From contig NZ_AP021879.1 of the NCBI RefSeq assembly GCF_009689005.1, positions 4,548,652-4,580,651 on the forward strand: a stretch of DNA of 32,000 nucleotides, in the 5' to 3' direction. Under the pieces are notes generated by a model. It had not been told where the DNA came from and ran no database searches. It saw nothing but the letters and a program-made list of their open reading frames with translations. The position numbers were made by a program, and so were the translations under genes. Position 1 is the stretch's first letter; every line of letters begins with the position of its first letter. Source of the stretch: Desulfosarcina ovata subsp. ovata (GTDB lineage: Bacteria; Desulfobacterota; Desulfobacteria; Desulfobacterales; Desulfosarcinaceae). Positions 5,437 to 26,125 of the stretch are shown piece after piece.

Positions 5437-5475
5437 AAAACACAAATGCCAAATTTGTAATTTATAAAATTTACA
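5437..5475 (+). promoter_or_regulatory. candidate upstream activator site (second copy of the AAAACACAAA / GTAATTT / ATAAAATTTACA element)
   Basis: Lies about 134 bp upstream of the -24 GG of the glnD sigma-54 promoter. Block order is the same as at 3241-3279. Confidence 0.35.
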
Positions 5476-5569
5476 AGTTACGTTATTGTAGTTGACCGCC
5501 AAATAAAGAAACGCTTCAGGGAAATTGCAATATCTTGTATTCTTTGTATTTTATTTCATTTGTGGCAAG

Positions 5570-5585
5570 TGGCATGTGTGTTGCT
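5570..5585 (+). promoter_or_regulatory. sigma-54 (-24/-12) promoter for glnD-amt-glnK
   Basis: TGGCATgtgtgTTGCT has GG and GC at canonical spacing. It sits about 40 bp upstream of the GTG start of glnD. Confidence 0.65.
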
Positions 5586-5623
5586 AACTTTAATGGTGCC
5601 AAGCATTTAACAAGGACAATGAC

Positions 5624-8266: not shown

Positions 8267-8336
8267 GCAGACCCGCATCGAGGAAATTCAGAGGTACAAG
8301 GTTCAACGCCGAAAAAAACAAGAGGAAAACGACAAG

Positions 8337-10027
<1,691 letters not shown>

Positions 10028-10270
10028 GGATTGGGAATTTTATGAATTAAACGAAATTGCTTGTTCTTGAGTCCGTCTTCCGCGTTGCGTCAACGGCCAC
10101 ATACTCCCGGTATGCAACCCTTGATGCACCTTGAAGACGAACACAAGCCCGGCGCAATTACGTTCAATTAATTTCATCCCCGATCCTAACCCGAATCAGT
10201 GTCAATACTCTTGTTTCAAACGGAATAAACTACCAACTTTTTCAACACTTCTTTTTTTTGTGGAGGACAC

Positions 10271-11683
10271 ATGACACCAGCACAAGTTATGGCAATGGCA
10301 AAGGAAAAAGGCGTAAAAATCGTCGATATCCGCTTTATGGATTTTCCCGGAATGTGGCAGCACTTCAGTGTTCCGATCAGCGAACTCAGTGAAAGCAGCT
10401 TCGATGAAGGGTTCGGTTTTGACGGATCCAGTATCCGTGGCTGGCAGCCGATCAACGCTAGTGACATGCTGGTGGTGCCCGATGCCGCTACGGCGAAAAT
10501 CGACCCCTTCTTCAAGGCCCCGACCCTGGCCGTAATCGGCAACATCGTCGACCCCATTACCCTGGAGGCCTATTCCCGCGACCCGCGCAACATCGCCAAC
10601 AAGGCCGAAGCCTACCTGAAAAGCACCGGAATCGGTGACACCGCCTTCTTTGGCCCCGAAGCCGAATTTTTCATCTTTGACGACATCCGTTACGAAAGCA
10701 ACCGCAATGGCTGTTTCTACGCGGTGGATTCCGTGGAAGGCACCTGGAATACCGGACGCTGTGAAGAGCCCAACCTGGGATACAAACCGCGCCACAAGGA
10801 AGGCTACTTCCCCGTACCGCCGTCGGACAAGTTTCAGGACCTGCGCTCCGACATGCTGCTGACCCTGGAAGCCCTGGGCATCGACGTGGAGTGCCAGCAT
10901 CACGAAGTGGCCACTTCCGGTCAGGCCGAGATTGACATGCGCTTCAAACCCTTGGTGCAGATGGCCGACCAGCTCATGTGGTTCAAGTATGTCCTTAAAA
11001 ACGTCGCCTACCAAGCCGGCCATACCGTGACCTTCATGCCCAAACCGCTCTTCGAGGACAACGGTACCGGTATGCACACCCACATCAGCATCTGGAACGG
11101 CGACAAACCCCTGTTCGCCGGTGACAAGTATGCCGGCGTCTCCCAGGAAGCCCTGTGGGCCATCGGCGGCATCCTGAAACATTGCCGGGCCCTGTGCGCT
11201 TTCACCAACCCGACCACCAACTCCTACAAACGCCTGGTGCCGGGTTTCGAGGCACCGGTGAATCTGGCGTACTCCAGCCGGAACCGCAGCGCCGCCATCC
11301 GGATTCCCATGTATTCGGCATCACCCAAGGCCAAACGTATCGAGTTCCGTACGCCTGACCCGTCCTGCAACGGCTACCTGGCCTTCTCCGCCATGCTGAT
11401 GGCCGTCCTCGACGGCATCCAGAACAAACTCGATCCGGGCGATCCGCTGGATAAGAACCTTTACGATCTGCCACCCGAAGAACTGGCCGAAATTCCGTCC
11501 GCGCCGGGCGCTCTGGATGTCTCGCTGGCAGCGCTGGCCGAAGATAACGAATTCCTGCTCAAAGGCGACGTCTTCACCAAGGACGTGATTGATATGTGGA
11601 TTGACTACAAGACCGAAAACGAGGTCAACCCAGTGAAGCTGCGTCCGCATCCGCACGAGTTCCACCTGTACTACGACATCTAA
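10271..11683 (+). CDS. glnA: glutamine synthetase, type I
   Basis: 470 aa. Contains the GS-I blocks [27 protein letters not shown] and [14 protein letters not shown], plus the adenylylation loop [11 protein letters not shown]. Confidence 0.97.
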
Positions 11684-11731
11684 TGATCGAATGCGACCGA
11701 TTCCTCCCGACACGAACCGGTCCTCCCTGAA

Positions 11732-11772
11732 AACGGTAGCTCGCCACATGCGGCGGGCTACCGTTTTGATTT
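11732..11772 (+). terminator. rho-independent terminator of glnA
   Basis: AACGGTAGCTCGCC-acatgc-GGCGGGCTACCGTT forms a 14-bp stem with one mismatch, followed by TTGATTTCATTTC. Confidence 0.6.
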
Positions 11773-12150
11773 CATTTCAGAAGCATATCCGCGGCATCGC
11801 AGAAATCCAGCTCCTGCATTTTTAAAATCCGCGCTTCCGTATTGAGCACACCGCCGGGAATGACTTCCACCCCCAGTTTCTCGGCAGCATAATGAGCCGC
11901 CCAGAAGGCCACGAACATGTTGTAACCAAAGGGAAGCAGCATTCCGGTCGGTGATAGTTGTTTTTACCCGGCCCCTGAACCTCGCGCATCATGGACTTCT
12001 CGATCTTGGGAACCTTGCGAATATTTGCGAATGAATTTGGGAAGGCATTTCCCATATCCGAGAGAGGCATGGCCCGACATATGCTGCCGGATAAGGGACA
12101 TCTTGAGCGGCCAAATGTCGCTGTTTGAACTTCCCGCGGAAGTTGAAAAG
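11772..12150 (-). pseudogene. remnant of a PaaK / coenzyme F390 synthetase-like adenylate-forming ligase (fragmented)
   Basis: A short minus-strand ORF at 11772-11942 reads MLLPFGYNMFVAFWAAHYAAEKLGVEVIPGGVLNTEARILKMQELDF. This resembles the PaaK block GYGLFTGGLGxHYGAExLGxxVIPxSGGxTExQ. Upstream sequence gives only broken frames, so no intact gene is present. Confidence 0.35.
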
Positions 12151-12200
12151 ACTGCGCAGTGCTATGCCGGGAAGATTTTCGGAGAAGACAAGTCGCTGAT

Positions 12201-12304
12201 ATAGCATTCAAGATAATGTTTTTGGGCTGCGTTATCGGTCGTCGCAGTATGACAATACGGCTTCCTCCCTCTGGCCTTGCCAAAAACATTATCTTAAATG
12301 CTAT
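12201..12304. repeat. 25-bp inverted repeat (24/25 match) around a 54-bp spacer
   Basis: ATAGCATTCAAGATAATGTTTTTGG (12201-12225) pairs with the reverse complement of CCAAAAACATTATCTTAAATGCTAT (12280-12304). It is also visible as KNIILNAI in ORFs on both strands. Confidence 0.8.
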
Positions 12305-12305
12305 A

Positions 12306-12430
12306 GTAATGGATGTCGGAATCGCGACGAAAGAAAACGTGCAATGGCTGAGAGAAAAAAGGATTCAGATACCTCGTGGTCAGCAGAAAGTACCGCAGGG
12401 AATCTCCGGGCGAAATTAAAAACGTTCGAG
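12306..12430 (+). pseudogene. DDE transposase fragment (IS4/IS1634-like), frameshifted
   Basis: VMDVGIATKENVQWLREK in one frame continues as GFRYLVVSRKYRRE in the next frame. This resembles the first catalytic-Asp region of IS4-superfamily transposases. No full-length transposase ORF is present. Confidence 0.45.
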
Positions 12431-12517
12431 GCTATAGAATGATAGTCCAAAAAGCTATGTTATCATTGATCTTTCAATTTTGCAGTGACAAAGATGGGTT
12501 AAAAATAAAATCGAATT

Positions 12518-13159
12518 TTATTTCATGGCAATCAGTTTTTCTTCAGGTCTTTTTTCATCTTTACCGGTTACAGATTTGTTCATCAATTTATCCAGTTGTG
12601 AATTATCCCAGCGTTGAAACAGGTCATGTTCTATACCCATGTAATCCAGGACCTTTCCCACGGACTGATTAATAATATCATCAAGGCTTTTGGGATGATG
12701 ATAAAACGCCGGCACTGGCGGGATTATATGCGCCCCCATGTCTGCGGCTTGGATTAACAGCCGTAAATGTCCTTTATGCAAAGGGGTTTCCCTGAACAGC
12801 AGTGCCACATTACGTTTTTCTTTGAGTTGGACATCTGCGGCTCGGATCAGGAGATTCTCATTATAAGAATTGGCAATTCCAGACAGGGTTTTAACCGTAC
12901 AGGGCGCAACCACCATGCCCATGGTCAAAAATGAACCGCTGGCAACAGATGCGGTAATATCTTTATTGCTATAGGTGACATCCGCCATGGCAAGGACGTC
13001 ATCCACATCATAATCAGTCTCTATCCGGATATTGAGCTTTCCGGGCTCTGAAATAATCAGATGGGTTTCAATGCCTATATTTTTCAAAACTTCAAGCATT
13101 CTGACGCCATAAATGACGCCACTTGCCCCGGCTATCCCTACGATTAATCGCTTTGCCAT
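12518..13159 (-). CDS. ubiX: UbiX-family flavin prenyltransferase (prFMN synthase)
   Basis: 213 aa. MAKRLIVGIAGASGVIYGVRMLEVL...APCTVKTLSGIANSY.ENLLIRAADV.LKE.R is the characteristic UbiX/Pad1 flavoprotein signature. An AAAGGGG RBS precedes the start. Confidence 0.9.
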   Translation of the reverse strand: MAKRLIVGIAGASGVIYGVRMLEVLKNIGIETHLIISEPGKLNIRIETDYDVDDVLAMADVTYSNKDITASVASGSFLTMGMVVAPCTVKTLSGIANSYNENLLIRAADVQLKEKRNVALLFRETPLHKGHLRLLIQAADMGAHIIPPVPAFYHHPKSLDDIINQSVGKVLDYMGIEHDLFQRWDNSQLDKLMNKSVTGKDEKRPEEKLIAMK

Positions 13160-13244
13160 ATCCGACCCCTTTGGATTCCGCGGTTAACACTATTTTTTTA
13201 GGTGATATCTTTGGTTCCAACGATACACTTCAAGCCCAAAAGAA

Positions 13245-13276
13245 CCCTTCCCCCACGTTCAGTTGTGAAGGAAGGG
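13245..13276 (-). terminator. weak hairpin between the ubiD-like gene and ubiX (possible attenuator)
   Basis: CCCTTCC-N18-GGAAGGG. On the minus-strand transcript it is followed by TTCTTTT. The stem is only 7 bp. Confidence 0.25.
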
Positions 13277-13311
13277 GTAATCCATTTCAAAACAACTGAT
13301 ATGCCGTTTTT

Positions 13312-14820
13312 TTATGACATTTCGCTGTTTTCAAGAAAACGCGTGATATCAACTTCCATGAACTCCGCTCTTTTGAAGCGGTCCTTCAGATCATAGCGGA
13401 CGGTACAGTCAAATATGGTCTTGCACGATGTGCCCGGGGTGATAATGGATGGACTTATATCCGGTCTCTGTGACGGATCCAGAGGATGACACCGTACGCC
13501 GGGGATGGAAATGGTATCCACATCACTCTGATACCGTGTCATCATGGCCCATAGAACGTCTTTGCTGTCAAAAATATCCACATCTTCATCCACCAGAATC
13601 ACGGTCTTCAACTCCGGGAAAGCGGAAAAAGCACAAATTGCCGCCTGACGTTCACGTCCCTGGTCTACAGGGACTATTTTACGGAACTGAATTACGGCCA
13701 AAAGCTTGCCGCCGCCGGCCGGATGACAGTAAACATTCAAGACACGGCCAGGCATAGCTTTTTCAACCACGGTTAAAATACTCGCCTCGGTGGGAATACC
13801 TGCCAGGTTCACATGTTCTTCGCTGGGCCCGATAGTGGTTTGAGTAATGGGATGAATGCGATGGGTAACAGCCTTGATTTTGAATACTGGCAGGGATGGA
13901 TTGGCCGGCCCGTTGTAACCAGGGAATTCAGGCATGGCACGCCCTGTTTTGGTGTTCATATCCTCAACAACACGACGGTCCGGCAACAGCTCTCCTTCAA
14001 TAACAATCTCGGCATTGGCAATGGCTTTGGCATTAACCGTGAGGCACTCCACCATTTCCACCGGACGGTTACGCAGGGAACCTGCAATATCCAGCTCATT
14101 GTAGCCAATGGGTGTGGCCGGGGGCTCAAAGCAGGCGGCAATGTAAACGGCCGGGTCCAGGCCGATGCTTACTGAAATGGGAAGTGATTTTCCCTGTGCT
14201 TCGGCCTTTTCACGGAAAGCACCAATATGCCTTCCCGGCACGAAATACATGGAAATCTCATCTTTTGACTGCAGGCACTGGCGATGAATGGTTACATCTT
14301 CTTCACCGGTTTCCGGATCTGAACCATAAACCAGCCCCATAGTAATAAATGGGCCTGCATCCTCCGGGGTGTTGGTTGGCGCTGGAATCAGTTTGCGGAT
14401 ATCAAAACCGGGATCCGTGGCCCGGTGAACAACTTCCTGGCAAACCGCCTTTTCCTTGGAGATCATCACAGGAGGCAGGGGATTTTTCAACGCTTCATTC
14501 ATTTTATGACCCAGATAACGCGGATCCGTTCCCAACAAAAGTCCGACACGTTCACGACTGCCCACCACGCCAATGGCCACCCGCGCGTCGTCATACCCCT
14601 TAATGTTATTGAAAAGCATCATGGGACCCGTCTGGGTCGGGCGGCTGACAGTTCCTCCAGCTCCAATTTTTTTATAAACGCCTGCCAGTTCAGCATGGGG
14701 GTCCACTTCTTCATTTGTTTGCATCAGCTGGCCGGGCTGGGTTGAAAGAAAAGATAATGCAGAACGAAGGTCAATAATATCGGATCCCGATACACCGCTG
14801 TTGGATTCTTCTTTTTTCAT
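13312..14820 (-). CDS. UbiD-family prFMN-dependent (de)carboxylase
   Basis: Start set at the ATG at 14820 (MKKEESN...), preceded by AAGGA; the track start 14853 is TTG. UbiD-type blocks include PEDAGPFITMGLV, IHRQ, LPISVSIGLDPA, IVIEGEL, and LVDEDVDIFDSKDVLWAMMTR near the C-terminus. Confidence 0.9.
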   Translation of the reverse strand: MKKEESNSGVSGSDIIDLRSALSFLSTQPGQLMQTNEEVDPHAELAGVYKKIGAGGTVSRPTQTGPMMLFNNIKGYDDARVAIGVVGSRERVGLLLGTDPRYLGHKMNEALKNPLPPVMISKEKAVCQEVVHRATDPGFDIRKLIPAPTNTPEDAGPFITMGLVYGSDPETGEEDVTIHRQCLQSKDEISMYFVPGRHIGAFREKAEAQGKSLPISVSIGLDPAVYIAACFEPPATPIGYNELDIAGSLRNRPVEMVECLTVNAKAIANAEIVIEGELLPDRRVVEDMNTKTGRAMPEFPGYNGPANPSLPVFKIKAVTHRIHPITQTTIGPSEEHVNLAGIPTEASILTVVEKAMPGRVLNVYCHPAGGGKLLAVIQFRKIVPVDQGRERQAAICAFSAFPELKTVILVDEDVDIFDSKDVLWAMMTRYQSDVDTISIPGVRCHPLDPSQRPDISPSIITPGTSCKTIFDCTVRYDLKDRFKRAEFMEVDITRFLENSEMS

Positions 14821-14855
14821 GTTTTTTCCTTTATGATGATAATGAGTTGTCAAGA

Positions 14856-16523
14856 TTATGCCATCTGGGCTTCAGTCTTGAGTTTGTTCTCAATATCTTC
14901 ACGCAGAGTCCGCTTATCCAGTTTCTGTGCGCCGGTATACGGCATCTCATCAATGAATTCTATACGCTCGGGAAGTTGGAGTACAGACGCATCCTGGGCC
15001 TTTAAGAAAGCAATAACATTATCAAAGTCCAGTTGACTTCCTTCGGTCGGCTGAATATAGGCACACGCCTTTTCTCCCATATCCTCGTCCGGCATGGGAA
15101 TCACCGCCACCATGGCAACTTCCGGATGAAGCGTGATCAATTTTTCAATTTCTGTAGAACTGATGCTTTCTCCTCCCCGGTTGATCATCTCTTTGATACG
15201 GCCGGTCAAAGTGATGTAGCCGTTTTCATCGATCCTGGCCAGATCGCCGGTTTTGAAAAATCCATCTTCATTCAATGCTGTCTTGTTTTCTTCCGGATTT
15301 TCATAATACCCGGTAAAGACCCCGGGGCCTTTGAGAACCAGCTCGCCCTGTTTGCCGGTTTCCACTTCTTTTCCGAAAGGATCAATCACCTTGTAGGTAT
15401 CATAGGGACAGGTAGGTCGCCCCACGGTCCCGCAGATGGTTTCAAGGTCATTATTGATTCGAGTGATGGTGGTCGGTCCCTCTGTTCCGCCATATCCATT
15501 GAAAAATTTGCAGTTCAATTTGTCTATGACGTCTTTTACCATACCCGGATGGCTGGCACCGCCGGCACTGTGCATCTTCTGCAGGGAAGTCAAATCATAT
15601 TGATTGATATCTTCGTATTGCAGCAGTCTTTGGGCCAGGGTCGGTACCCATATAATTGAAGTGATTTTCTCCTGTTGAATGGTTTCACAAATGCTTTTAT
15701 TATCCGGAGAGTCCAGCAGAACTACCTTGCCCATGGTGATGATAGAGCCCATGAAGCCTTTGCTGAAGGACAAATCATGACCAATAGGACCGGCGATGAG
15801 GTTGATATCCAGATTGCTTTGTTCCCATGATCTTGAACAATAGGTAATGCCGGTCACCAGACTGTTATGACTGCGGGGAACAACTTTAGGTGCTCCTGTG
15901 GTTCCGCCGGTGGGGCCCATGTGTGCAATCTGCATGGGATCCGGACGTCGTTGTACAAGACGATCCAGGTTCTCTTGGGTCATGTCAGCCTTTGCCATTA
16001 AGCCTTCAAGACTTTCAAATTTTTCTCCGGCCCGTTCGCCCCGGACTGTAATCACTTTTTTAATTCCGGGATTTTCTTTCAGAACGTCATCCATAATAGG
16101 CGTGTAGTCAGTTTTTTTGTGCTTGACAGGAACAACCCAATAGGTGGCACCGGTTATGTTCGTCAAATGATTGATCTCATACTGGCGATACCGGTCGATC
16201 AACAGAACCGTGATGGCACCGATTTTTTGAAGGGCAAAATAAGCGAAAACAAACTCGTTCCAGTTGGGTAACTGCACCATAACTCTATCTTTGGGCTGAA
16301 TGCCCAAATCCATCATACCGATGGCCAACTGATTTACTTTTTCTCTAGCTTCACCATAGGTTAACCGGGTGACACGATCTACAAAAGCCTCTTTGTCCGG
16401 ATGAACATCCGCGGCACGATCAAGAAGATCGCCAAACGTCAATCCCTCCCACCATTTTAACTCGTTGTACTTTTTAACATCTTCTTCTTTGTAAGGCACG
16501 CACCCTGATAATAAATCAACCAT
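14856..16523 (-). CDS. aryl-carboxylate CoA/AMP ligase (EntE/DhbE-like adenylate-forming enzyme)
   Basis: Contains LTYGEAREKVNQLA, VMVQLPNWNEFVFAYFALQKIGA (compare EntE VQLPN..EF), GPTGGTTGAPKVVPRSH (the A3 motif), GYGGTEG, TGDLARIDENGYITLTGRIKEMINRGGE. The preferred start is the ATG at 16523 after GAGAGGAA; the ATG at 16550 is an alternative. Confidence 0.85.
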   Translation of the reverse strand: MVDLLSGCVPYKEEDVKKYNELKWWEGLTFGDLLDRAADVHPDKEAFVDRVTRLTYGEAREKVNQLAIGMMDLGIQPKDRVMVQLPNWNEFVFAYFALQKIGAITVLLIDRYRQYEINHLTNITGATYWVVPVKHKKTDYTPIMDDVLKENPGIKKVITVRGERAGEKFESLEGLMAKADMTQENLDRLVQRRPDPMQIAHMGPTGGTTGAPKVVPRSHNSLVTGITYCSRSWEQSNLDINLIAGPIGHDLSFSKGFMGSIITMGKVVLLDSPDNKSICETIQQEKITSIIWVPTLAQRLLQYEDINQYDLTSLQKMHSAGGASHPGMVKDVIDKLNCKFFNGYGGTEGPTTITRINNDLETICGTVGRPTCPYDTYKVIDPFGKEVETGKQGELVLKGPGVFTGYYENPEENKTALNEDGFFKTGDLARIDENGYITLTGRIKEMINRGGESISSTEIEKLITLHPEVAMVAVIPMPDEDMGEKACAYIQPTEGSQLDFDNVIAFLKAQDASVLQLPERIEFIDEMPYTGAQKLDKRTLREDIENKLKTEAQMA

Positions 16524-16633
16524 GTCTTGTTCCTCTCTTCTTCGACTCATTGAGTCAAGTTAGGGTAAGAGCAATCTGGTCCTGAGGACCGGATCTTCGG
16601 CTTGCCATCCCCAAGGCAGGGATGAAGCACTAT

Positions 16634-16686
16634 CCAAGGAATGAATTAGATAGTTTTTTTTAATTTATTCAAGGAATGAATCAGAT
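16634..16686. promoter_or_regulatory. two LysR-type boxes (ATyCA-AGGAA-TGAAT; T-N11-A) spaced 34 bp, in the ligase/lysR divergent promoter region
   Basis: TCCAAGGAATGAATTAGAT (16634-16652) and TTCAAGGAATGAATCAGAT (16668-16686). The second contains the perfect dyad ATTCA-N5-TGAAT. Confidence 0.4.
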
Positions 16687-16945
16687 TAATTCTTTTGAAG
16701 AATTATATGCAGGCAACAAACAAGTCAATTCATAGAATTTTATAATATAATAAGTAATTTTAAACTTGACTTTTTTATTTTATAAAAATAAATTTTCATA
16801 CAAGAAAAAATGAATAAAATTCAGATAGACCATAACTATTTAAAAAAATAGGTTTTTTTATTCAAAAAGGATGGCTGGCAGTACCATTGTGCCAAAATTT
16901 ACGGATAAATCTGAAATGCTTACCCTTTTTTAAAGGACAAGTATT

Positions 16946-17874
16946 ATGCATCCTCCTCAAATTAACCTCTACCAACTTATTAGCTTTTATACCGTGGCCA
17001 AAGAAGGTAGCTTCAGTGCAGCCTCAAAAAAACTTTGCGTGACCCAGCCTGCGGTGACCATGCAAATAAAATCGTTGGAAAAATTTTATGACCTGAAGTT
17101 GGTCAATGTAAAAAAAAAAAAGTTAGCTTGACAGAAACAGGACAGAAGCTGTTCCATTATGCTGAGCAATTCTACCTGTCGGCCATCAAGGCGGAAACCT
17201 TTCTTCAGGAGCAAAAAAACAATAATTTGAGTATTGGCATAGCAAGTCCCCTGACCCAACAGTTCATTGTTCTGATTAAAAAATTCAAGCAATACTACCC
17301 CCATGTAATGGTAACGCTCAGAGAAGGCACTGACCAAGAAATCATTGCAGATGTTCGTGATTTCAAACTGATGCTGGGGTTTATCGGCACGATTGAGCAG
17401 TCGGTTCGTGAACTCAATGTGATTCCTGTTGCACCTGAAAACAGATTGGTACTGGTTTCCTTCCCCCAGAATCCCTTGGCCTGCAAAGAAAAAGTAATCT
17501 GGAAGGACTTGGAAGGTTGTTCGCTGATTATTCATCGAGAAGGCATGACCGGGCGAAATATAATTCTTGATGCATTTAAAAAAAATAGAATTAAACCCGT
17601 TATAACCGCTGAAATTGAAAGCATCGAAGGCATGAAAAATCTGATCAAGCAGGACGCAGGAATTGGCCTGAAATTTTTCCCAAATGTCAAAGAAGAAATT
17701 TTGAATAAAACGCTTAAAATCATTCCATTAGAAAGCGATCAGCTGAAGATCGGGATAGATGCCGTTTTTCAGGCAAATATCAGTCTTTCCCTGCCTTCAA
17801 AAGCCTTTCTGGATATTGCCATCGAACATTTCAATAACATTTCCACCAAAGTGAGCGCTGGTTCAGTTAAATAG
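16946..17874 (+). pseudogene. LysR-family transcriptional regulator split by a frameshift in an A12 homopolymer (ORFs 16946-17131 and 17128-17874)
   Basis: The N-terminal ORF carries the LysR HTH (LYQLISFYTVAKEGSFSAASKKLCVTQPAVTMQIKSLE). The second ORF resumes with (L)TETGQKLFHYAE and carries the substrate-binding domain. A run of 10 or 13 A would give one continuous 309-310 aa LTTR. Confidence 0.8.
17110..17121 (+). repeat. A12 homopolymer at the LysR frameshift point
   Basis: Direct count of GT-AAAAAAAAAAAA-GTTAGC. Confidence 0.95.
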
Positions 17875-18014
17875 GTAATAATAGATAACCATTTTGGCTG
17901 GTGGGTAAGGTTTTCGACATGTTCCGCATTGAGAACCGCTGCTTTCGGCACTGGGAAAGCCACAAACTCAACCACGCCATTACCATGCTGCGGACGGAAG
18001 GGGCTTGATCAGGA

Positions 18015-19103
18015 ATGCCGATGCGCCATGACATGTTCGCCCCCCGAGCTGATCCGGTAGCAACAGGATCCACCGGCCAGCGAAAGTGGGAGCATCTCCG
18101 CATTTGTACGCAAAACGATGTCACGTTCGAAAAGAGCAGCGGTTTTGAGTGCTACGACCTCGAACACCAGGCCCTTCCCGAACGCTGCCTTGAGGAGATC
18201 GATACGTCAACCACATTTCTCGGTAAAAAATTCAACCTCCCGTTTTTCATCGAAGCGATGACCGGTGGCTGTCCGGGAACGGAAACGATCAATCAGAATC
18301 TCGCCCGGGCGGCGGAGGAGATGGGAATCGGAATGGGCGTCGGCTCACAGCGGGCCATGCTCGACGATCCATCACTTGCCTATACGTACCAGGTGAGAAG
18401 CGTGGCTCCGAACATCCTGCTGCTGGGCAATATCGGCGCTGCTCAGCTGGCCGGCCGGCATGGGAAGGCGATCGCCGGTCTGATTCGAGAAATCGATGCC
18501 GACGGGATTGCCGTTCACCTCAATGCCGCCCAGGAGTTATGCCAGCCCGAAGGGGACAAGGACTGGCGCAATATGATTGTTCACATCAAAGAGGTCTGCA
18601 CCGCCGTAAACGGTCCAATCATCGCCAAGGAGACGGGTTGCGGCATCGCCGGCGGAATCGCGGCGACACTGGAATCCCTCGGAATCGATGCATTGGATAT
18701 CGCCGGTGCCGGGGGGACTTCCTTTACCCGGGTTGAACATCACCGCGGCGCCAGCCTGGCCAAAGCCTTTTTCGAGTGGGGCATCCCGACGGCCGCGTCG
18801 TTAAAGCAGTGCCGGTGCGCGATACAAATTCCCATCATCGCCTCCGGGGGAATCCGGTCCGGCGTGGACGCTGCCAAAGCTCTCGCCATGGGCGCTTCGA
18901 TCGTAGGATTTGCTCTGCCCCTGCTGATACCGGCCATGCAATCCTATCAGGCCGTTATCGACAAACTGACGCAATTTGCAAGCGAGTTGAAAATGGCCAT
19001 GCTTCTGGCGGGGGCAGCGACGATTCAGGGGCTTTCCGCAACCCGGGTTGTCGAGCGGGCATGCTGTTATGGGCCGTTGATGCATCGGCCAACCGTTTCA
19101 TAA
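18015..19103 (+). CDS. fni: type 2 (FMN-dependent) isopentenyl-diphosphate delta-isomerase
   Basis: 362 aa. Contains QRKWEHLRI, FFIEAMTGG, MGVGSQRA, HLNAAQE, IAKETGCGI, DIAGAGGTSF and IASGGIRSG, the typical IDI-2 TIM-barrel signature. The exact start is uncertain, with ATG codons at 18015, 18021 and 18033. Confidence 0.9.
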   Translation: MPMRHDMFAPRADPVATGSTGQRKWEHLRICTQNDVTFEKSSGFECYDLEHQALPERCLEEIDTSTTFLGKKFNLPFFIEAMTGGCPGTETINQNLARAAEEMGIGMGVGSQRAMLDDPSLAYTYQVRSVAPNILLLGNIGAAQLAGRHGKAIAGLIREIDADGIAVHLNAAQELCQPEGDKDWRNMIVHIKEVCTAVNGPIIAKETGCGIAGGIAATLESLGIDALDIAGAGGTSFTRVEHHRGASLAKAFFEWGIPTAASLKQCRCAIQIPIIASGGIRSGVDAAKALAMGASIVGFALPLLIPAMQSYQAVIDKLTQFASELKMAMLLAGAATIQGLSATRVVERACCYGPLMHRPTVS

Positions 19104-19176: not shown

Positions 19177-19234
19177 ATCGCTTTAAACGGCCCTCTTTTT
19201 GACAGCCACATCAACCCCAATACGGTACAGCGTT

Positions 19235-19972
19235 ATGCTGCTTGACCCAAAAACGATTGCCTGCATGATATTTGATCTGGACGGAACCCTGATCGACTCC
19301 ATCCCGCCTTATTTCCGCCTGCTGGAAGGCATTTTTGACACCCTGGGTTTGCCGCAACCCGCGCTTGCCTTGAAAAAGGAGTTTATTACTACCGGGCCGG
19401 CGGTGTTTGAAAAAATGATTCCTCCGGAAATGGTTGCTGACCGGGACGCGATGATCCGCCAGTGCCTGGACGTGGGGCGGCGGATATCCCGCGATATGTT
19501 CCGTGACACGGTCGATGGGTTTCCTGATGTCAAGCGTTTGTTTGATCTGCTGGTTCGTCATGACATCCGCATCGGAATTGTCACCACGACCGAAAGAGAG
19601 TTTATCGAAAGAAAACTCCTGCCCTTGAAAAGAATCGGTGTTGCCGCGGCCGTCGATGCCATTGTTGCCATTGAAGATGCGCCCCGGCGCAAGCCGGCCC
19701 CGGATCCCTTGCTCGTTTGTGCGCGGCAGCTTTCCGTCAACCCCGAGCATTGTGTCTATGTCGGCGATTCTTATGTGGACATCCGCGCCGGCTGCAGCGC
19801 GGGGATGAAAACCATCGCCGTTCTCAGTGGCCTGGATGATTTCGATACGCTTGACAGAGAAAGGCCGACAGTAATCGTTCAGAACATCGCCGCCATATGG
19901 CGCACTTTGGATGAGTATTTCTCTTGTCCGAATAACCATGAGAAAAGCGGGGAATACCTCTACCATGCATAA
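19235..19972 (+). CDS. HAD-superfamily phosphatase (phosphoglycolate phosphatase-like subfamily)
   Basis: Motif I is MIFDLDGTLIDS, motif II IVTTT, and motif III/IV K(P)APDP...YVGDSYVDIRAG. The ATG at 19235 is preferred over the TTG at 19199. Confidence 0.8.
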   Translation: MLLDPKTIACMIFDLDGTLIDSIPPYFRLLEGIFDTLGLPQPALALKKEFITTGPAVFEKMIPPEMVADRDAMIRQCLDVGRRISRDMFRDTVDGFPDVKRLFDLLVRHDIRIGIVTTTEREFIERKLLPLKRIGVAAAVDAIVAIEDAPRRKPAPDPLLVCARQLSVNPEHCVYVGDSYVDIRAGCSAGMKTIAVLSGLDDFDTLDRERPTVIVQNIAAIWRTLDEYFSCPNNHEKSGEYLYHA

Positions 19973-20396
19973 AAAAACGAAAATTAACGAGACCATGACC
20001 ATATCGGGACGTATCCAAAGCGGGGTCGGCAAAGGCTCCTTTTTCACATCGCTGGATTGGGTCGTTCAACAGTGTGAAGACAAACTGGGCTATGCACCGT
20101 TTCCAGGTACCCTCAACATACGGGTACGCGATGAAGACGTTCCCAAACTGCAGCACTTTTTGGCGAAAACGGACGCCGAACTCGTCCCTGAAGATCGTTC
20201 GTTTTGTGCCGCGCCGGTTAAGAAAGTGATGATCAAAGGCGTTCCGGCGGCGGTGGTCCTGCCGACCGAGGATGTCCGCATTCATGAAGATCGGATTCTC
20301 GAAATCATTTCACCGCACAGTTTCAAGCAATCTTTTGGCCTTCACGATGGCGACCAGATCAGTATCATCGGCAAAACCACAATTATAAAAAAGTGA
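19965..20396 (+). CDS. ribK: archaeal-type (CTP-dependent, DUF120) riboflavin kinase
   Basis: ISGRIQSGVGKGSFFTSLDWVVQQCEDKLGYAPFPGTLNIRV...ILEIISPHSFKQSFGLHDGDQISI follows the GxVxSGxGxGxxF...LGxxPFxGTLN...IEIIxP...LxDGD pattern of MJ0056-type kinases. The proposed ATG overlaps the HAD stop codon (ATGCATAA). Confidence 0.8.
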   Translation: MHKKTKINETMTISGRIQSGVGKGSFFTSLDWVVQQCEDKLGYAPFPGTLNIRVRDEDVPKLQHFLAKTDAELVPEDRSFCAAPVKKVMIKGVPAAVVLPTEDVRIHEDRILEIISPHSFKQSFGLHDGDQISIIGKTTIIKK

Positions 20397-20403
20397 CGAA
20401 ATC

Positions 20404-20748
20404 ATGACCGTAAAAATTTACAATGAGATTTACGAATTTGCCGCATCCGCGGGTGCCCTGGAAGGCTACGTCTTCTTAAAAAAGGATCTGCAGGCGGATC
20501 ATCTCGACAATTGGATTCGGAATCTTGAGAATCAATATCGACTGCTTCCAGAGGAAGTCAGGCAATGTGTCCAGACATCCGTGGACCGGACATTGGGAAG
20601 GGCATGGCAATCGATTGCTGCGGTTCTTGGAGAGACGCACAGGCACGTACGGTCCCTGAAATCAATGACAGCGGGCAATCCGCCTGACTCTCCACAGGAT
20701 TTTGAGAAAGAGAAAAAAGAGAAAGCAGAAAAGTATTGCACCGGTTGA
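20404..20748 (+). CDS. hypothetical protein (114 aa, Lys/Glu-rich C-terminus)
   Basis: ORF begins 8 nt after the ribK stop on the same strand. I recognise no family. Confidence 0.45.
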   Translation: MTVKIYNEIYEFAASAGALEGYVFLKKDLQADHLDNWIRNLENQYRLLPEEVRQCVQTSVDRTLGRAWQSIAAVLGETHRHVRSLKSMTAGNPPDSPQDFEKEKKEKAEKYCTG

Positions 20749-20752
20749 TCCT

Positions 20753-21277
20753 TTATTCTCTGTGTTCCGGCTGAGCCATACTATATAAATCGATTTCGCT
20801 GCGGAACCCGAACTGGACGCTGTTGTCCAGGTAGTAAACGCACTGTGGCGTGAAGCAGTACAGCTTTACTCGAAAGCGCTTGCTGAAACCAACCAGATCA
20901 ATCACCTGCCCGTCCTCGAAAAAATCACTGGTAAACGGGAACTTGCCGATATAGGCGCGTACGGCCTGAAGCGCCCGGAACCCCGGTCGTACCGGTGATA
21001 CCTGCCCGGACATTTGAATCCCGCGAATGCCCTGCCACGTCTCGGCATACGGATAGATGGCAGCGGCCACCGAATCATTCGCCAGTGCCTCCTGAACATG
21101 TTGCGATTCCGGTTTGGAAAAGAAATAAAAGGCCGCTTTCTGCCGCACATAATAGACCGGTGCCGCCCAGGCCCGGTTGTTTGCTGACGTTGCCAGGGTC
21201 ATCGTGGACTGCTGGTCAATCAATTCAAGCGCGGCGGTCTTGTGTCTCGACATGGGCGCGTCCAATGGTTTGCTCAT
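20753..21277 (-). CDS. pyridoxamine 5'-phosphate oxidase-like FMN-binding split-barrel protein
   Basis: STMTLATSANNRAWAAPVYYV...FYFFSKPESQHVQ...IRGIQMSG is the PNPOx-family pattern. Start set at the ATG at 21277 after GGAG; the track start 21304 is TTG. Confidence 0.65.
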   Translation of the reverse strand: MSKPLDAPMSRHKTAALELIDQQSTMTLATSANNRAWAAPVYYVRQKAAFYFFSKPESQHVQEALANDSVAAAIYPYAETWQGIRGIQMSGQVSPVRPGFRALQAVRAYIGKFPFTSDFFEDGQVIDLVGFSKRFRVKLYCFTPQCVYYLDNSVQFGFRSEIDLYSMAQPEHRE

Positions 21278-21300
21278 CTCTGGTCTCCATAGCTTCGGTG

Positions 21301-21705
21301 TCAATGATCAGCGTCATCTCCGCCTTTGGATTTGAGCAGGGCTTCCAGGGCGGCAAAGGGTTTATGGGAAAAATCCGAATCCGCCGATTTTTCTTTTGAT
21401 GGGGAATGATTGTCGTAGGACTCGGCCACTTCCAGGCGGCCATGCTCGTTATCATGGCAATAGATGCATAAAAGTTCCCAGTTGCTGCCATCGGGCGGAT
21501 TGTTGTCGTGGTTATGATCCCGGTGGTGGACGGTCAGCTCCCGCAGTTGCTTGCCACTGAATTCCCGACCACAGCGACCACAGACATGCGGATACATCTT
21601 GAGCGCTTTTTCGCGGTAGGTTTTTTCCCGATCCTGCATATGGCGACGGGCATCGGCCACGACCTGGGAAAGTCGATTCGAATCGTTGGTTTTGTTTTTC
21701 GGCAT
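21301..21705 (-). CDS. yajD: YajD-family HNH nuclease-fold protein
   Basis: YREKALKMYPHVCGRCGREFSGKQLRELTVHHRDHNHDNNPPDGSNWELLCIYCHDNEH is near-collinear with E. coli YajD as I recall it. Confidence 0.85.
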   Translation of the reverse strand: MPKNKTNDSNRLSQVVADARRHMQDREKTYREKALKMYPHVCGRCGREFSGKQLRELTVHHRDHNHDNNPPDGSNWELLCIYCHDNEHGRLEVAESYDNHSPSKEKSADSDFSHKPFAALEALLKSKGGDDADH

Positions 21706-21972
21706 CTTTCTGACTCCATGGAATTTGAACGTTGATGGATGGCACCATTTGAAAATTTCCCACCTCGGCGTTTACTGTTCATACCATCCCCACCGCCCCT
21801 GAACAAGCCGTCTCTCGATGCTGCGAGCATCGGTGTCAACGCCCCACAACATGCGCTGCTCAATGAATTTATAGTGGCTTCGGCATGGAGCAGTCTCGAC
21901 GGCTATGCCCGGCAGGCGCGTCAGGGCCTGTGTTCAGTTTCGTTGATGGGCGGGCCGGAAAAAACGGTGTAC

Positions 21973-22005
21973 AAAAAAAGCGGGACGCACCCAAGTGCAT
22001 CCCGC
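21973..22005 (-). terminator. rho-independent terminator of sat
   Basis: GCGGGACGCAC-ccaa-GTGCATCCCGC forms an 11-bp stem with one mismatch. The A7 run on the plus strand is a U7 tract on the minus-strand transcript. Confidence 0.6.
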
Positions 22006-22043
22006 TTTGTGGTTTTTCTTGTAAAGTCGGCAGTGACTGGCGA

Positions 22044-23315
22044 TTAGTCGCCGGTAGCGGCCTTGTGGGTCTTGATTTCAACCTTTTCGGTAAGACCTTC
22101 GTAGTACTCGCGCAGGATGGCGACAACTTCATCACGACCAAAGTGATCGGGCAGATCGCCGCCCTCGGACAGCATCTTGCGCAGCATGGTGCCGGAGAGC
22201 AGCACGCGGTCTTCCTTGGCGTGGGGGCAGGTTCTCAGGGAAGCCATGCCGTCACACTTGTAGCAGTAGAAGGTCCAGTCGATCTTCAGCGGCGTACAAA
22301 GCAGGCCTTTTCCACCCTCGGGGGTCGGAATCTTGTCGAAGATGGTCTGTGCTTCGAACATGCCATAGAAGTCACCCACGCCGGCATGGTCACGGCCGAT
22401 GATCATTTTGGAGCAGCCATAGTTCTGGCGGAAAGCGGCGTGCAGGAGGCCTTCACGGGGACCGGCATAGCGCATATCCAGAGGATAGCCGCCCTGAATA
22501 ACGTTCTGCTCGACAAAGTAGTTTTTCACCAGGGCGTCGATGCATTTTACGCGGACTTCGGCCGGAATGTCACCCGGTTTCAGGTTGCCGACCAGGGAGT
22601 GGATGTAAACGCCGTCGCACACTTCCACGGCGATCTTGCACAGGTACTCATGGGAGCGATGCATGGGGTTGCGCAACTGCAGGGCGGCCACTTCACTCCA
22701 ACCACGATCCTCGAACAGCTTGCGGGATTCGGACGGACGATGGTAGACACCGGCGTATTTGGTCGGGTATTCGCCTTCGCTGAGGACCTTGACCGGGCCG
22801 GCCAGGTTGATCGGTTTCTGGCTCATGACCATCTGGACGCCGGGATGATCTTCCTTGGCGATTTTCCAGAATTCCTCGGCCGTCGGGGTGCCTTCGCCCA
22901 TGAAGACTTTTTCGCATTCCCAGGTCTTGTCGGCATCGGTCATCTCGAATTTTTCGGTGACTGTCATGGTGGCCATGATCTCTTTGCTTTCGGGATCGAC
23001 CAGGGCGATTTCGTCACCATCGGCGATGCCGTCAGCATCTTCCTTGGTTACGTCGAGGCACACCGGCACGGGCCAGAAGGTACCGTCGGCCATCAGGAAG
23101 TTTTCGCAAACGCCTTTCCAGTCCGCTTTGGTCATGAAGCCGGTGATGGGGCTGAAACCGCCGATACCGATCATGATCAGGTCGCCTTTGACCCGCGGGG
23201 AGATCTCGACCTGCTTCAGGCCGGCAGCCTTCTTCAGTTCGGCTTCCCTTTCGGCGCCTTCGAGCAGACAGATGGTCAGACCTTTGCCTCCATGGGGGGG
23301 GATGAGTGTGGACAT
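22044..23315 (-). CDS. sat: sulfate adenylyltransferase (ATP sulfurylase), dissimilatory type
   Basis: 423 aa. [13 protein letters not shown]..., [14 protein letters not shown] and [14 protein letters not shown] are the HxxH / GRD signature blocks. Confidence 0.95.
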
Positions 23316-23513
23316 GTGTTCTCTCTCCTTTCAATTTTTAGATTTTCACAATCTGTAAGCACAGATGAATAGCCGGGAAGGAATGAAAATATCAAGTAGA
23401 TGTAACTATTCGGGAACGGTATATTTGTCAAGAACATTCATAACGGCGCCGATTGATGGCTGAAATAAATAATTCGATAACAAACAAAAAGCCGAATTCG
23501 GTGCCAAACCTGG

Positions 23514-24532: not shown

Positions 24533-26125
24533 ATGAGCGTTCACCCCTCCCCCCAAGCTCCCAACGATATAAAAAAGCGGCGTATCGGCGAGCAACTGCT
24601 CGACGACGGCCTTATCAATTCGGAACAGCTCCAGCAGGTGCTCAATCGGCAGGCCCAGGTCGGCGGAAAGTTGGGTTCCATCATGATCGAAATGGGCTTC
24701 GTGGAACTGGATGACTTGTTGGACCTGCTCAGTCGAAAGTTTGGTGTTCCAGGAGTGAACCTTTACCAACGCAACATTGGAAAAAATGTGCTTCACCTGC
24801 TGCCCATCGAGAAAATGGTTGCCAAGCGGGTTCTGCCTGTATCGCTGGATGGCCAGAACCTGGTCCTGGCGATGGTTAATCCGCAGGATTTTGCCACCAT
24901 TAGCGAACTTGAGTTTTCCCTGGGAAAAAAAATCAGGCCGGTGGTGATGCCGGCTTTCATGCTGGATAGCGCCATTCGCAGTGTCAGCGCTAACCCGGAC
25001 GGCGATCTGCAAGGGGCTGTGCTGGCAGAGCTGGTAGAAATGGAGAAGAGCGAAAAGTCTCCCCGATTGATGCCCCTTTTGCGTTACCTGAAAAAGACCG
25101 GCGCCAACGATATGATCTTCACGGTCGGTTCTCCGCCATCCATCAAGGTTGCCAACTCACTGAAACGAATGGCGATTCCTCCACTTACTCCCGAGGATTG
25201 CATCGGTTATGTTCGGGAAATGCTTTCCGATGAGGGCTGGCATGAATTTCAAAAGAAGACCGACCACGAATTCACGATCACTTCAAAGGAACTGGGGCGA
25301 TTCAGGGCGGCGCTTTATCGTCAGCGGAATTCCGTGGCCATCGCCTTAAGGCCGATTTTGGACGATATGCCGCCATTGTCCGAGTTGAACCTGCCGGAAT
25401 GGATCGCCAAATTCGCCCTGCGCTCCCAAGGGCTGATTCTGGTTTCCAGCCCGGCAGGCCATGGCAAGACCACCACGCTCTCCGCCTTGGTGGATATCAT
25501 CAACAGCCGTCGGGGGTGCAATATCATTACCATGGAAGATCCGGTGGAGTTTTTGCACAAACATAAAAAAAGCAATATCAGCCAGCGTGAAGTGGGCCGG
25601 GATGTGCCTTCCTTCGGTCAGGGTATGCGTCATATGCTGCGCCATTCACCGGACGTGATCGTTGTTGGCGAGATGCGTGACAGAGAAACCTTCCGGATCG
25701 CCCTGCAGGCGGCCAATTCAGGTCATCTGGTCCTTTCCACCGTTCATTCGGACAACTCCACTTCCATCATCGAGCGGGTCGTCAACATGTTTGAGCCCTT
25801 TGAACAGAATTTGATCCGCATGACTCTGGCGGAGTCCCTTTTAATCTCGATCGCTCAGCGACTGGTGACCCGCAAGGATGGCAATGGCCGGATGCTGGCC
25901 CTGGAATATTTTGTCAACAGCCACCGCATGAAAGGATTTATCCGCGAGGGCAAGACCCATCAGGTGAGAACCCAGATGCAGACCGGCAGCGACGATTTTT
26001 CCAGCATCGACATTTCCCTGGCCAAACTGGTCAAGCAGGGGCTGATCCGTGTTGAAGACGGGCTGACCCATTGTGAAGACGATTCGTTTTTTCGCAGTCT
26101 GGTCCAGCCGGCGGATAAGAATTGA
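24533..26125 (+). CDS. PilT/PilU-like secretion ATPase with N-terminal MshEN (T2SSE_N) domain
   Basis: N-terminus has RRIGEQLLDDGLINSEQLQQVLNRQ plus KLGSIMIEMGFVELDDLLDLLSRKFG. The core has Walker A SPAGHGKTTT, Asp box ITMEDPVEF, Walker B DVIVVGEMRD, His box GHLVLSTVHS, and FIREGKTHQV. An AGGAGA RBS precedes the start. Confidence 0.85.
   Translation: MSVHPSPQAPNDIKKRRIGEQLLDDGLINSEQLQQVLNRQAQVGGKLGSIMIEMGFVELDDLLDLLSRKFGVPGVNLYQRNIGKNVLHLLPIEKMVAKRVLPVSLDGQNLVLAMVNPQDFATISELEFSLGKKIRPVVMPAFMLDSAIRSVSANPDGDLQGAVLAELVEMEKSEKSPRLMPLLRYLKKTGANDMIFTVGSPPSIKVANSLKRMAIPPLTPEDCIGYVREMLSDEGWHEFQKKTDHEFTITSKELGRFRAALYRQRNSVAIALRPILDDMPPLSELNLPEWIAKFALRSQGLILVSSPAGHGKTTTLSALVDIINSRRGCNIITMEDPVEFLHKHKKSNISQREVGRDVPSFGQGMRHMLRHSPDVIVVGEMRDRETFRIALQAANSGHLVLSTVHSDNSTSIIERVVNMFEPFEQNLIRMTLAESLLISIAQRLVTRKDGNGRMLALEYFVNSHRMKGFIREGKTHQVRTQMQTGSDDFSSIDISLAKLVKQGLIRVEDGLTHCEDDSFFRSLVQPADKN

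Follow-up and report, generated by a model that had tools for sequence, protein, structure and literature searches.

A putative catechol-activating cassette with an AroY-type enzyme and an aryl-CoA ligase in Desulfosarcina ovata

Gene content and composition of the cassette

A 32,000-nt stretch of DNA from Desulfosarcina ovata subsp. ovata (contig NZ_AP021879.1, positions 4,548,652 to 4,580,651), hereafter the window, was found to carry a compact cassette of genes with a likely role in anaerobic aromatic metabolism. A ligase gene (lig), a gene of the UbiD family (aroY), and ubiX all lie in the same direction on the minus strand, with the gene for a LysR-type regulator divergent on the plus strand. 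This arrangement had been described in a first-pass annotation of the sequence, and all of its genes were present where they had been placed. The regulator gene on the plus strand is, however, not one open reading frame (ORF) but is split by a frameshift in a run of 12 A residues (A12) that the annotation had not seen. The features of the cassette are as follows, in window coordinates.

12518-13159, minus strand: ubiX (NF004685, 252 bits against a cutoff of 188; PF02441)
13245-13276, minus strand: terminator-like hairpin with a 12-bp stem between aroY and ubiX (consensus scan only)
13312-14853, minus strand: UbiD-family gene aroY, with all three UbiD domains; database gene call from the ATG at 14820, 502 aa
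14856-16550, minus strand: AMP-binding ligase gene lig (PF00501 and PF13193); database gene call from 16523, 555 aa
16551-16945, no strand assigned: divergent promoter region between lig and the LysR gene, 29.6% GC, with several sigma-70-like matches on both strands (consensus only)
16946-17874, plus strand: interrupted gene for a LysR-type regulator, with HTH_1 in the ORF at 16946-17131 and LysR_substrate in the ORF at 17128-17874

The spacing between lig and aroY is 2-35 nt, and that between aroY and ubiX is 152 nt. The hairpin in the latter gap could attenuate expression of ubiX. A search of the window with Rfam at the gathering threshold detected no RNA family, and hence no FMN riboswitch.

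The limits of the acquired segment were placed at around 12035 and 17897, giving a cassette of about 5.9 kb that is slightly wider than the 12518-17874 interval occupied by the genes. The GC content of 12035-17897 is 44.8%, compared with 55.3% for everything in the window outside it. The GC content at third codon positions (GC3) is 0.435-0.50 in the cassette ORFs and 0.50-0.79 in all other window genes, of which the 14 lying outside the neighboring cofactor operon (below) have values of 0.60-0.79. This contrast gave a Mann-Whitney U of 0 (p = 2e-5, a value somewhat inflated by counting the two halves of the regulator as two genes). The relative synonymous codon usage of the cassette correlates with that of the remaining genes at 0.59, against 0.85 for the neighboring genes from fni to the PNPOx-like gene. 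The AT-richer island of the first-pass annotation, which had been proposed from hand counts, thus holds under GC3 and codon-usage statistics.

The enzymes of the cassette and their proposed pathway

The protein encoded by aroY matched the Pfam models for the UbiD N-terminal, rift, and C-terminal domains (PF20695, PF01977, and PF20696), all above cutoff. Comparison with the PDB gave 633-659 bits for the AroY enzymes (3,4-dihydroxybenzoate decarboxylases) of Enterobacter and Klebsiella, and the match to the crystallized E. cloacae AroY (5o3n/5ny5; 659 bits) corresponds to 61% identity over 480 residues. Other solved UbiD families scored 234 bits (HmfF-like), 167 bits (indole-3-carboxylate decarboxylase), 142 bits (phthaloyl-CoA decarboxylase, 8pmk and 8oz5), 124 bits (vanillate decarboxylase), and 117-121 bits (E. 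coli UbiD). Residues that bind both hydroxyl groups of catechol or are essential to AroY activity include R188, H327, K363, H436, and E289 (Payer et al., PMC5656893). In an alignment to 5ny5 all of these residues, together with R171 and E233, are identical in the window enzyme. The window UbiD homologue is accordingly named here as a predicted AroY/LpdC-type o-diphenol (de)carboxylase dependent on prenylated FMN (prFMN), that is, a protocatechuate decarboxylase/catechol carboxylase. Because the catechol-binding residues are kept and the enzyme is assigned to AroY, the expected substrate is an o-diphenol or protocatechuate-type compound.

A housekeeping UbiD of quinone biosynthesis was ruled out, since the quinone-pathway models scored far under their cutoffs (NF008175, 131 against 788 bits; TIGR03701, 156 against 496 bits), and the aromatic interpretation of the first-pass annotation survives this comparison. 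That annotation had offered two specific schemes. In one, a phthalate isomer is activated with CoA and then decarboxylated by a UbiD-type enzyme; in the other, a UbiD-type enzyme carboxylates an arene such as benzene or naphthalene, and CoA is ligated to the product. The combination of ligase, UbiD, and UbiX superficially resembles such clusters, and the title of Watanabe et al. 2020 describes D. ovata as a hydrocarbon degrader. Nevertheless, identity with phthaloyl-CoA decarboxylase was ruled out by its score of 142 bits against 659 for AroY, the catechol-binding residues are intact, and the NCBIfam models for phenylphosphate carboxylase subunits reached only 81-111 bits, far below their cutoffs. 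A benzene or naphthalene carboxylase is disfavored by way of the positive AroY assignment and not by way of a direct comparison with AbcA or naphthalene carboxylase subunits. Taken together, we regard these schemes as barely credible for this locus, and the phthaloyl-CoA decarboxylase chemistry has to be dropped. What was supported is the general logic behind them, in which anaerobes metabolize aromatic compounds by pairing a prFMN-dependent (de)carboxylase with an aryl-CoA ligase.

The ligase has the ANL adenylation fold (PF00501, 242 bits, and PF13193). Its closest solved relatives are a salicylate-AMP ligase (313 bits) and DhbE, the 2,3-dihydroxybenzoate-AMP ligase (309 bits), and its best NCBIfam model is that of the dihydroxybenzoate (DHB)-AMP ligases (TIGR02275, 363 bits, under the cutoff of 724). 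The earlier description of the ligase as EntE-like agrees with these nearest structures, although the binding residues of DhbE are absent. In work by May et al. from 2002, N235, Y236, and S240 of DhbE are said to bind the substrate and to contact its ortho and meta hydroxyl groups; the corresponding positions of the window ligase hold D, L, and a gap (HNYPLSS in DhbE, HDLSFS- in the window).

A scan of GTDB genomes for relatives of the ligase gave 59 loci, 58 of them with relatives of 56-80% identity, nearly all in metagenome-assembled genomes (MAGs) of Desulfobacteria or Syntrophia. At some Desulfobacteria loci the relative lies between a cluster of phenylphosphate carboxylase, UbiX, and riboflavin kinase genes on one side and genes resembling those for 4-hydroxybenzoyl-CoA reductase, O-demethylase, and a tripartite ATP-independent periplasmic (TRAP) transporter on the other. 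In about 20 MAG loci of Desulfobacteria and Syntrophia (within L009-L060) the ligase relatives, which are 60-74% identical, are preceded by an IclR regulator. These are followed, about 60 nt downstream, by a molybdopterin oxidoreductase of about 700 aa of the bis-molybdopterin guanine dinucleotide type, a 4Fe-4S/ferredoxin subunit, and a TRAP transporter (e.g. L030 3254-5353 and L028 1855-2619), a gene set that could constitute an uncharacterized dehydroxylase module for aryl acids or aryl-CoA thioesters. No nonribosomal peptide synthetase (NRPS) or aryl-carrier genes were present among the recurrent neighbor families of 57 related ligase loci.

The best PDB and NCBIfam matches of the ligase (EntE, DhbE, and salicylate-AMP ligases), together with weak matches to the BagM and BagN models, might indicate a biosynthetic role in which adenylation of an aryl cap would be combined with UbiD/UbiX for a catecholate siderophore or a bagremycin-like metabolite. 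We consider this very unlikely. The BagN match is 84 bits against a cutoff of 1000, the substrate residues of DhbE are not kept, and a Pfam survey of the large ORFs of the window detected no NRPS, aryl-carrier, isochorismate, or export genes. Judged from sequence and gene neighborhoods, the ligase family is one of predicted catabolic aryl-CoA ligases for hydroxylated benzoates and not of siderophore enzymes, and the window ligase is a putative (di)hydroxybenzoate-CoA ligase.

The same cassette was found on a contig of a Desulfocastanea-like MAG labeled "Desulfobacterium sp." (L008), where a divergent LysR gene is likewise followed by lig, aroY, and ubiX in the same order. Identities between L008 and the window are 58% for LysR, 80% for the ligase, 65% for AroY, and 70% for UbiX. 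On the 3' side of ubiX, L008 carries idi, encoding a type 1 isopentenyl diphosphate (IPP) isomerase (NF002995, 149 bits against a cutoff of 127), and then a PNPOx/YhbP-like gene. Desulfobacterium catecholicum is a sulfate reducer that was isolated on catechol. It has since been renamed Desulfocastanea catecholica (PMC12007115). In this species the ligase and the AroY homologue carry successive accessions, GAB6194499 and GAB6194500, within a single contig of 11.8 kb. Its ligase shares 95% identity with that of L008, and the window ligase is 79-80% identical to both. D. catecholica belongs to the class Desulfobulbia and D. ovata to Desulfobacteria, and a ligase identity as high as 79-80% between two classes speaks for transfer. 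The L008 contig has 46% GC overall, and the GC content of each L008 cassette gene almost equals that of its D. ovata copy, which is consistent with a putative Desulfocastanea-like donor background.

With moderate confidence, we propose that the cassette would convert catechol to protocatechuate and then to protocatechuyl-CoA. UbiX would make prFMN in its reduced form (prFMNH2), with which AroY would carboxylate catechol, or a close o-diphenol, in the position para to one hydroxyl group to give protocatechuate. This step would be reversible and unfavorable. The co-transcribed ATP-dependent ligase would then trap protocatechuate with CoA as protocatechuyl-CoA and so pull carboxylation forward, and the thioester would feed a reductive dehydroxylation/benzoyl-CoA route encoded elsewhere in the genome. 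The resident operon from fni to the PNPOx-like gene would supply dimethylallyl mono- or diphosphate and FMN and would handle prFMN. LysR would sense the substrate; a full-length regulator would require correction of A12 to A13, through slippage or if the assemblies are wrong. The proposal is supported by the position of lig, which immediately precedes aroY in the same orientation, and AroY is able to carboxylate catechols in the para position at high bicarbonate (PMC5656893). The reference list of a preprint (10.1101/2025.01.17.632430) places D. ovata subsp. sediminis among the species with distant homologues of a xanthine-oxidase-family phenol dehydroxylase, a weak hint that enzymes of this dehydroxylase type exist in the D. 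ovata genome.

Several observations weigh against a carboxylating cassette. The AroY and LpdC enzymes characterized to date are all physiological decarboxylases (PMC5656893, PMC10865409). No ORF of at least 20 aa resembling an LpdD/KpdD partner was found in the gap at 13160-13311; LpdD/KpdD is common in the AroY family, is not essential, and is present in the nearest relatives of the window AroY. The window AroY is 65% identical to that of L008 and 78% identical to AroYs of ordinary ubiX-lpdD-aroY operons, which leaves it unproven that the ligase-linked AroYs come from a single source. The L008 AroY is about equidistant from all of 120 family members (58-68% identical), which speaks neither for nor against a single origin. 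The substrate of the ligase cannot be read from its sequence, the window holds neither a transporter gene nor one for a protocatechuyl-CoA dehydroxylase, and the frameshift in the LysR gene is present in the assemblies of both D. ovata subspecies. We also know of no report of D. ovata using catechol.

The main rival explanation is that AroY would operate in the decarboxylating direction, turning protocatechuate or gallate into catechol or pyrogallol as a detoxification or a first catabolic step, while the ligase would activate some other aromatic acid. The record of the characterized enzymes favors this explanation, as do the closest relatives of the window AroY (73-78% identical), which are encoded in plain ubiX-lpdD-aroY operons without a ligase. 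However, the phenolic product is no substrate for a CoA ligase, and a strict anaerobe could take catechol no further without carboxylating it again. Furthermore, three independent lineages have lig next to aroY, and relatives of the ligase accompany carboxylases of phenol pathways. On balance, decarboxylation with an unrelated ligase substrate appears unlikely, while still deserving serious weight beside the proposed carboxylation and CoA ligation of catechol.

Regulator, borders, and the neighboring putative cofactor operon

The frameshift (-1) in the LysR gene is at the A12 run at 17110-17121 and separates the frame of the HTH domain from that of the effector domain. A run of 13 A residues instead of 12 would restore the reading frame: ...NVKKKKVSLTETG... 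The L008 orthologue is intact (310 aa) and reads NVKKKKVCLTKTG (NVKKKKV) at this point, with codons AAG AAG AAA AAA. Transcriptional slippage, phase variation, or a homopolymer error shared by both assemblies (13 A residues under-called) are possible explanations of the A12 tract. A LysR gene beside the ligase at locus L072 was rejected as an orthologue of the window regulator because the two are only 23% identical.

The window is 99.4% identical to AP021876.1 over 21.3 kb, and its ligase has the same amino acid sequence as a protein from D. ovata subsp. sediminis. Between the two subspecies, lig, aroY, and ubiX together show 13 synonymous and 5 non-synonymous differences. The resulting ratio of non-synonymous to synonymous change (pN/pS) of 0.11, which is like the 0.13 of the flanking housekeeping genes, indicates that the three cassette genes are under purifying selection. 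The split LysR gene has 2 differences, both synonymous, and no non-synonymous ones where about 9.6 would be expected under neutrality (Poisson P = 0.004; a weak test, as the adjoining intergenic regions also differ little between the subspecies). From these counts the regulator appears still to be constrained.

Relics and repeats were detected at both edges of the cassette.

11805-12034, minus strand: left scar, relic of a PaaK-like gene (phenylacetate-CoA ligase family), found by tblastn with the D. variabilis protein
12200-12225 and 12280-12305, no strand assigned: 26-nt inverted repeat, 96% complementary with a 54-nt spacer, in junk DNA at the left edge of the cassette
12261-12460 (approximate), plus strand: probable frameshifted fragment of an IS1634-family transposase, from a frame-repaired peptide compared with NF033559
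17898-17996, plus strand: right scar, relic of the C terminus of an ancestral UbiX just upstream of fni, 67% identity over 33 aa

The left scar was recognized with a 445-aa protein of Desulfosarcina variabilis (L068 1888-3225) that matches PaaK models: residues 137-186 match 11951-11805 with 88% identity over 50 aa, and a second piece, running from 12034 in a different frame, corresponds to residues 57-80; the relic has an internal deletion. The right scar matches residues 165-197, the end of the protein, of the D. variabilis UbiX, whose gene is itself directly upstream of fni in that organism. Between the relics lie the AT-rich cassette and about 480 nt of junk DNA. The inverted repeat in the junk may be the end of an insertion sequence (IS) or of a miniature inverted-repeat transposable element. 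The first-pass annotation had placed a transposase fragment and ligase debris at the left border. The debris is real, whereas the transposase is weakly supported: the peptide, repaired by hand, matches profile positions 213-252 of 483 in NF033559 (E = 1.6e-4, 20.8 bits), tblastn against plasmids gave only weak, unannotated matches, and Pfam gave no matches to the ORFs of the junk region or to the UbiX relic. A 1-nt indel distinguishes the two subspecies at position 12355.

Orthologues of fni (66-68% identical) were examined in D. variabilis, in an uncultured Desulfosarcina, and on a metagenome contig that is probably from Desulfobacteraceae. All of them lie directly downstream of a plus-strand ubiX or ubiX-ribBA (bacterial contexts L068, L069, L070, and L072), and the ubiX in question is the last gene of a phenylphosphate-carboxylase-like operon that encodes delta, UbiD, and gamma subunits. 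Upstream of the carboxylase operon, D. variabilis and probably also L072 have a ligase gene on the minus strand, which is PaaK-like in D. variabilis. The relics on both sides indicate that the cassette probably replaced such a phenylphosphate-carboxylase-like operon. In the simplest history, an IS-associated cassette from a Desulfocastanea-like donor would have displaced the resident carboxylase operon, and the donor idi and PNPOx genes, as found downstream of ubiX in L008, would have been lost at the truncated left end. Horizontal acquisition, as suggested in the first-pass annotation, is borne out by composition, by the cross-class identity of the ligase, and by the relics at both edges. The left flank of the window (3814-11683) is a nitrogen-assimilation block of amt, glnD, amt, P-II, and glnA genes, with a strong bidirectional hairpin terminator at the end of glnA (11730-11767). 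Other genes lie to the left of the PaaK-like ligase in D. variabilis, implying that this junction was rearranged more than once.

The cassette could also be a decaying, non-functional acquisition with a broken regulator, having lost the donor idi and PNPOx genes at an IS-truncated end in a host without a downstream pathway. The LysR frameshift in both subspecies, the transposase and ligase debris at the left edge, and the lack of a dehydroxylase or transporter in the window all fit such decay. We nonetheless hold it to be improbable, since lig, aroY, and ubiX are intact with a pN/pS of 0.11, the LysR gene is free of non-synonymous differences, and the resident fni and PNPOx-like genes can stand in for those lost from the donor. 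The resident genes are listed below with the corresponding gene sets elsewhere.

18015-19103, plus strand: fni, type 2 isopentenyl-diphosphate isomerase (TIGR02151, 385 bits against a cutoff of 281)
19199-19972, plus strand: HAD-IA phosphatase (PF13419), kept beside riboflavin kinase in L068, L070, and metagenome loci
19911-20396, plus strand: archaeal-type CTP-dependent riboflavin kinase (PF01982, 98 bits; NF040694, 67 bits, below cutoff)
20404-20748, plus strand: h114, a small conserved protein without a Pfam, NCBIfam, or PDB match
20753-21304, minus strand: PNPOx/YhbP-like split-barrel flavoprotein (PF01243, 36.7 bits; YhbP family, E = 8e-11)
L068 9404-13747; L070 1-1996 and 8244-11071; L072 6132-11144; L008 7412-9171: UbiX-linked gene set at other loci

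Each of the five proteins shares 50-68% identity with its counterparts in the other two Desulfosarcina genomes. The fni orthologues are accompanied by some or all of the genes for the HAD phosphatase, the CTP-dependent riboflavin kinase, a protein of about 110 aa, and a PNPOx-like protein on the minus strand, with the full series in D. variabilis. The first-pass annotation had treated fni as plain native flanking sequence; it is instead part of a conserved, UbiX-linked cofactor operon. Homologues of the riboflavin kinase adjoin UbiX in seven phenylphosphate carboxylase loci (L001-L004, L034, L051, and L057), ribBA is inserted between ubiX and fni in L070 and L072, and in L008 the position after ubiX is occupied by the non-homologous type 1 IPP isomerase. 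Copies of the PNPOx-like protein lie at the same position in L068 (65% identical) and L070 (54%), and a 34%-identical homologue lies 3' of ubiX-idi in L008.

The h114 family is small, with only 58 representative clusters among 1.84 billion proteins. It was called as one protein with a CTP-riboflavin-kinase domain in P0363, P0365, and P0377 and with an HD phosphohydrolase domain in P0366, although some of these calls are possibly read-throughs of gene calling. Of the 14 metagenome loci with h114, 10 have a riboflavin kinase match next to it. Distant homologues (47% identical, L086-L088) occur in an unrelated context, in L086 with succinyl-CoA synthetase and a phage-like metallopeptidase, so the family is not exclusive to the flavin operon. 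A relationship of h114 to LpdD was rejected (hhalign probability 0.2%). Searches of the PDB with phmmer gave nothing meaningful for h114 or the PNPOx-like protein, and single-sequence AlphaFold2 prediction of the latter gave an unusable model (mean pLDDT 36.5).

The substrates of UbiX are reduced FMN and dimethylallyl (mono)phosphate (DMAP), and a dedicated supply line would be expected to include an isomerase, a phosphatase, and a riboflavin kinase. On this basis, fni would be the source of dimethylallyl diphosphate (DMAPP) for UbiX, the riboflavin kinase would be the source of FMN, and the HAD protein is a candidate phosphatase for conversion of DMAPP to DMAP. The PNPOx-like protein and PhdC both belong to the split-barrel flavoprotein superfamily. 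PhdC is a split-barrel prFMN maturase, and the physiological oxidant of prFMN in strict anaerobes is described as unclear (PMC13040415). By analogy with PhdC, the PNPOx-like protein is a candidate prFMN-handling protein. The resident genes from fni to the PNPOx-like gene thus probably form a putative prFMN supply operon, a proposal drawn from gene linkage and not from biochemical function. More tentatively, and as something we would not yet favor over its negation, fni/idi, the HAD protein, riboflavin kinase, h114, and the PNPOx-like protein (with RibBA in some genomes) might constitute a dedicated operon for prFMN supply and maturation in strictly anaerobic Desulfobacteria. In such an operon the HAD protein would be the missing DMAPP-to-DMAP phosphatase, and the PNPOx-like protein, perhaps with h114, an O2-independent maturase or chaperone; the genes would have been retained when the carboxylase operon was exchanged because they were valuable. 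Searches of the literature for UbiX in connection with riboflavin kinase and IPP isomerase gave no relevant result and no paper describing such an operon.

The next-closest Fni homologues (65% identical; L073 and L074) are on archaeal-looking contigs with EMC3/TMCO1, Pus10, and Yip1 neighbors. Together with the archaeal type of the riboflavin kinase, this hints at an archaeal origin of the cofactor operon genes. A small HNH-endonuclease-like ORF (21301-21705, minus strand) lies between the PNPOx-like gene and the ATP sulfurylase gene sat (22044-23315, minus strand), and a 495-aa ORF on the plus strand (21885-23372) is a spurious antisense ORF over sat. Further to the right, divergence between the subspecies rises from about 0.1-0.6% to about 3% at 25000-26451. 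The type II/IV secretion ATPase gene has 51 nucleotide and 9 amino acid differences, and subsp. sediminis has an insertion of about 70 nt at 26144. The jump in divergence may mark a recombination boundary.

Comparison with known systems

The carboxylase and ligase genes of the catechol pathway of sulfate reducers have, to our knowledge, never been assigned, and a literature search found no paper assigning them. The cassette provides concrete candidate genes for this pathway with a testable mechanism. What is new here is the recruitment of an AroY-type enzyme together with a CoA ligase, most likely for the anaerobic activation of catechol. The principle, in which a reversible prFMN-dependent carboxylase would be pulled by an ATP-dependent ligase without phosphorylation of the substrate, is of relevance to biocatalytic CO2 fixation onto phenols. 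The operon from fni to the PNPOx-like gene is potentially unreported as a cofactor-supply operon, and its UbiX-linked genes are candidates in two questions of prFMN biology, namely the source of DMAP and the maturation of the cofactor without oxygen.

A close parallel is the route by which Desulfobacterium sp. Cat2 and Thauera aromatica degrade catechol anaerobically, with which the cassette has in common the proposed order of carboxylation and then CoA ligation; the cassette itself is shared with the catechol degrader D. catecholica. In strain Cat2, carboxylation to protocatechuate followed by formation of protocatechuyl-CoA was reportedly shown biochemically by Gorny and Schink in 1994, and the full sequence, as it is said to emerge from that work and from Ding et al. 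in 2008, runs from catechol through protocatechuate and protocatechuyl-CoA to 3-hydroxybenzoyl-CoA. Thauera uses its ATP-dependent phenylphosphate synthase/carboxylase promiscuously for catechol. The window system would differ in using a single direct carboxylation of the AroY type, with ATP spent only by the ligase.

Phenylphosphate carboxylase (PpcABCD) clusters, which serve anaerobic phenol degradation, likewise bring together a UbiD-family carboxylase, UbiX, riboflavin kinase, and a closely related ligase (71-74% identical) in Desulfobacteria, and an operon of this type was apparently the ancestral occupant of the site. Unlike these clusters, the window lacks genes for the gamma and delta subunits and for phenylphosphate synthase, and its UbiD protein is only 23-29% identical to theirs. 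Phthaloyl-CoA decarboxylase systems also pair UbiD and UbiX with a CoA-activating enzyme in anaerobes; apart from the low score of the decarboxylase (142 bits), the order of reactions would be the opposite of that proposed here. EntE, DhbE, and the salicylate-AMP ligases are the closest solved structures to the ligase (about 309-313 bits) and have the same ANL fold and length. The differences are the replaced substrate residues of DhbE and the catabolic neighbors, which lack a carrier protein or NRPS.

For the cofactor operon, the nearest comparisons are the chaperone LpdD and the maturases PhdC/YclD. The PNPOx-like protein is a split-barrel protein, as is PhdC, and is encoded beside UbiX-linked genes. 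It differs in having no detectable sequence similarity to PDB entries, and h114 is unrelated to LpdD.

The closest match to the carboxylase is to AroY/LpdC with its UbiX (KpdB/LpdB; PDB 5ny5, 5o3n, and 5o3m). The 61% identity extends over the full length and includes the three UbiD domains, the catalytic R171 and E289, and the catechol-binding R188, H327, K363, and H436, and a UbiX gene lies alongside in both cases. In contrast to those systems, the window has no LpdD/KpdD gene, and the enzyme is co-transcribed with an aryl-CoA ligase beside a LysR regulator in a strict anaerobe. This setting suggests that the physiological use of the window AroY is in the carboxylating direction.

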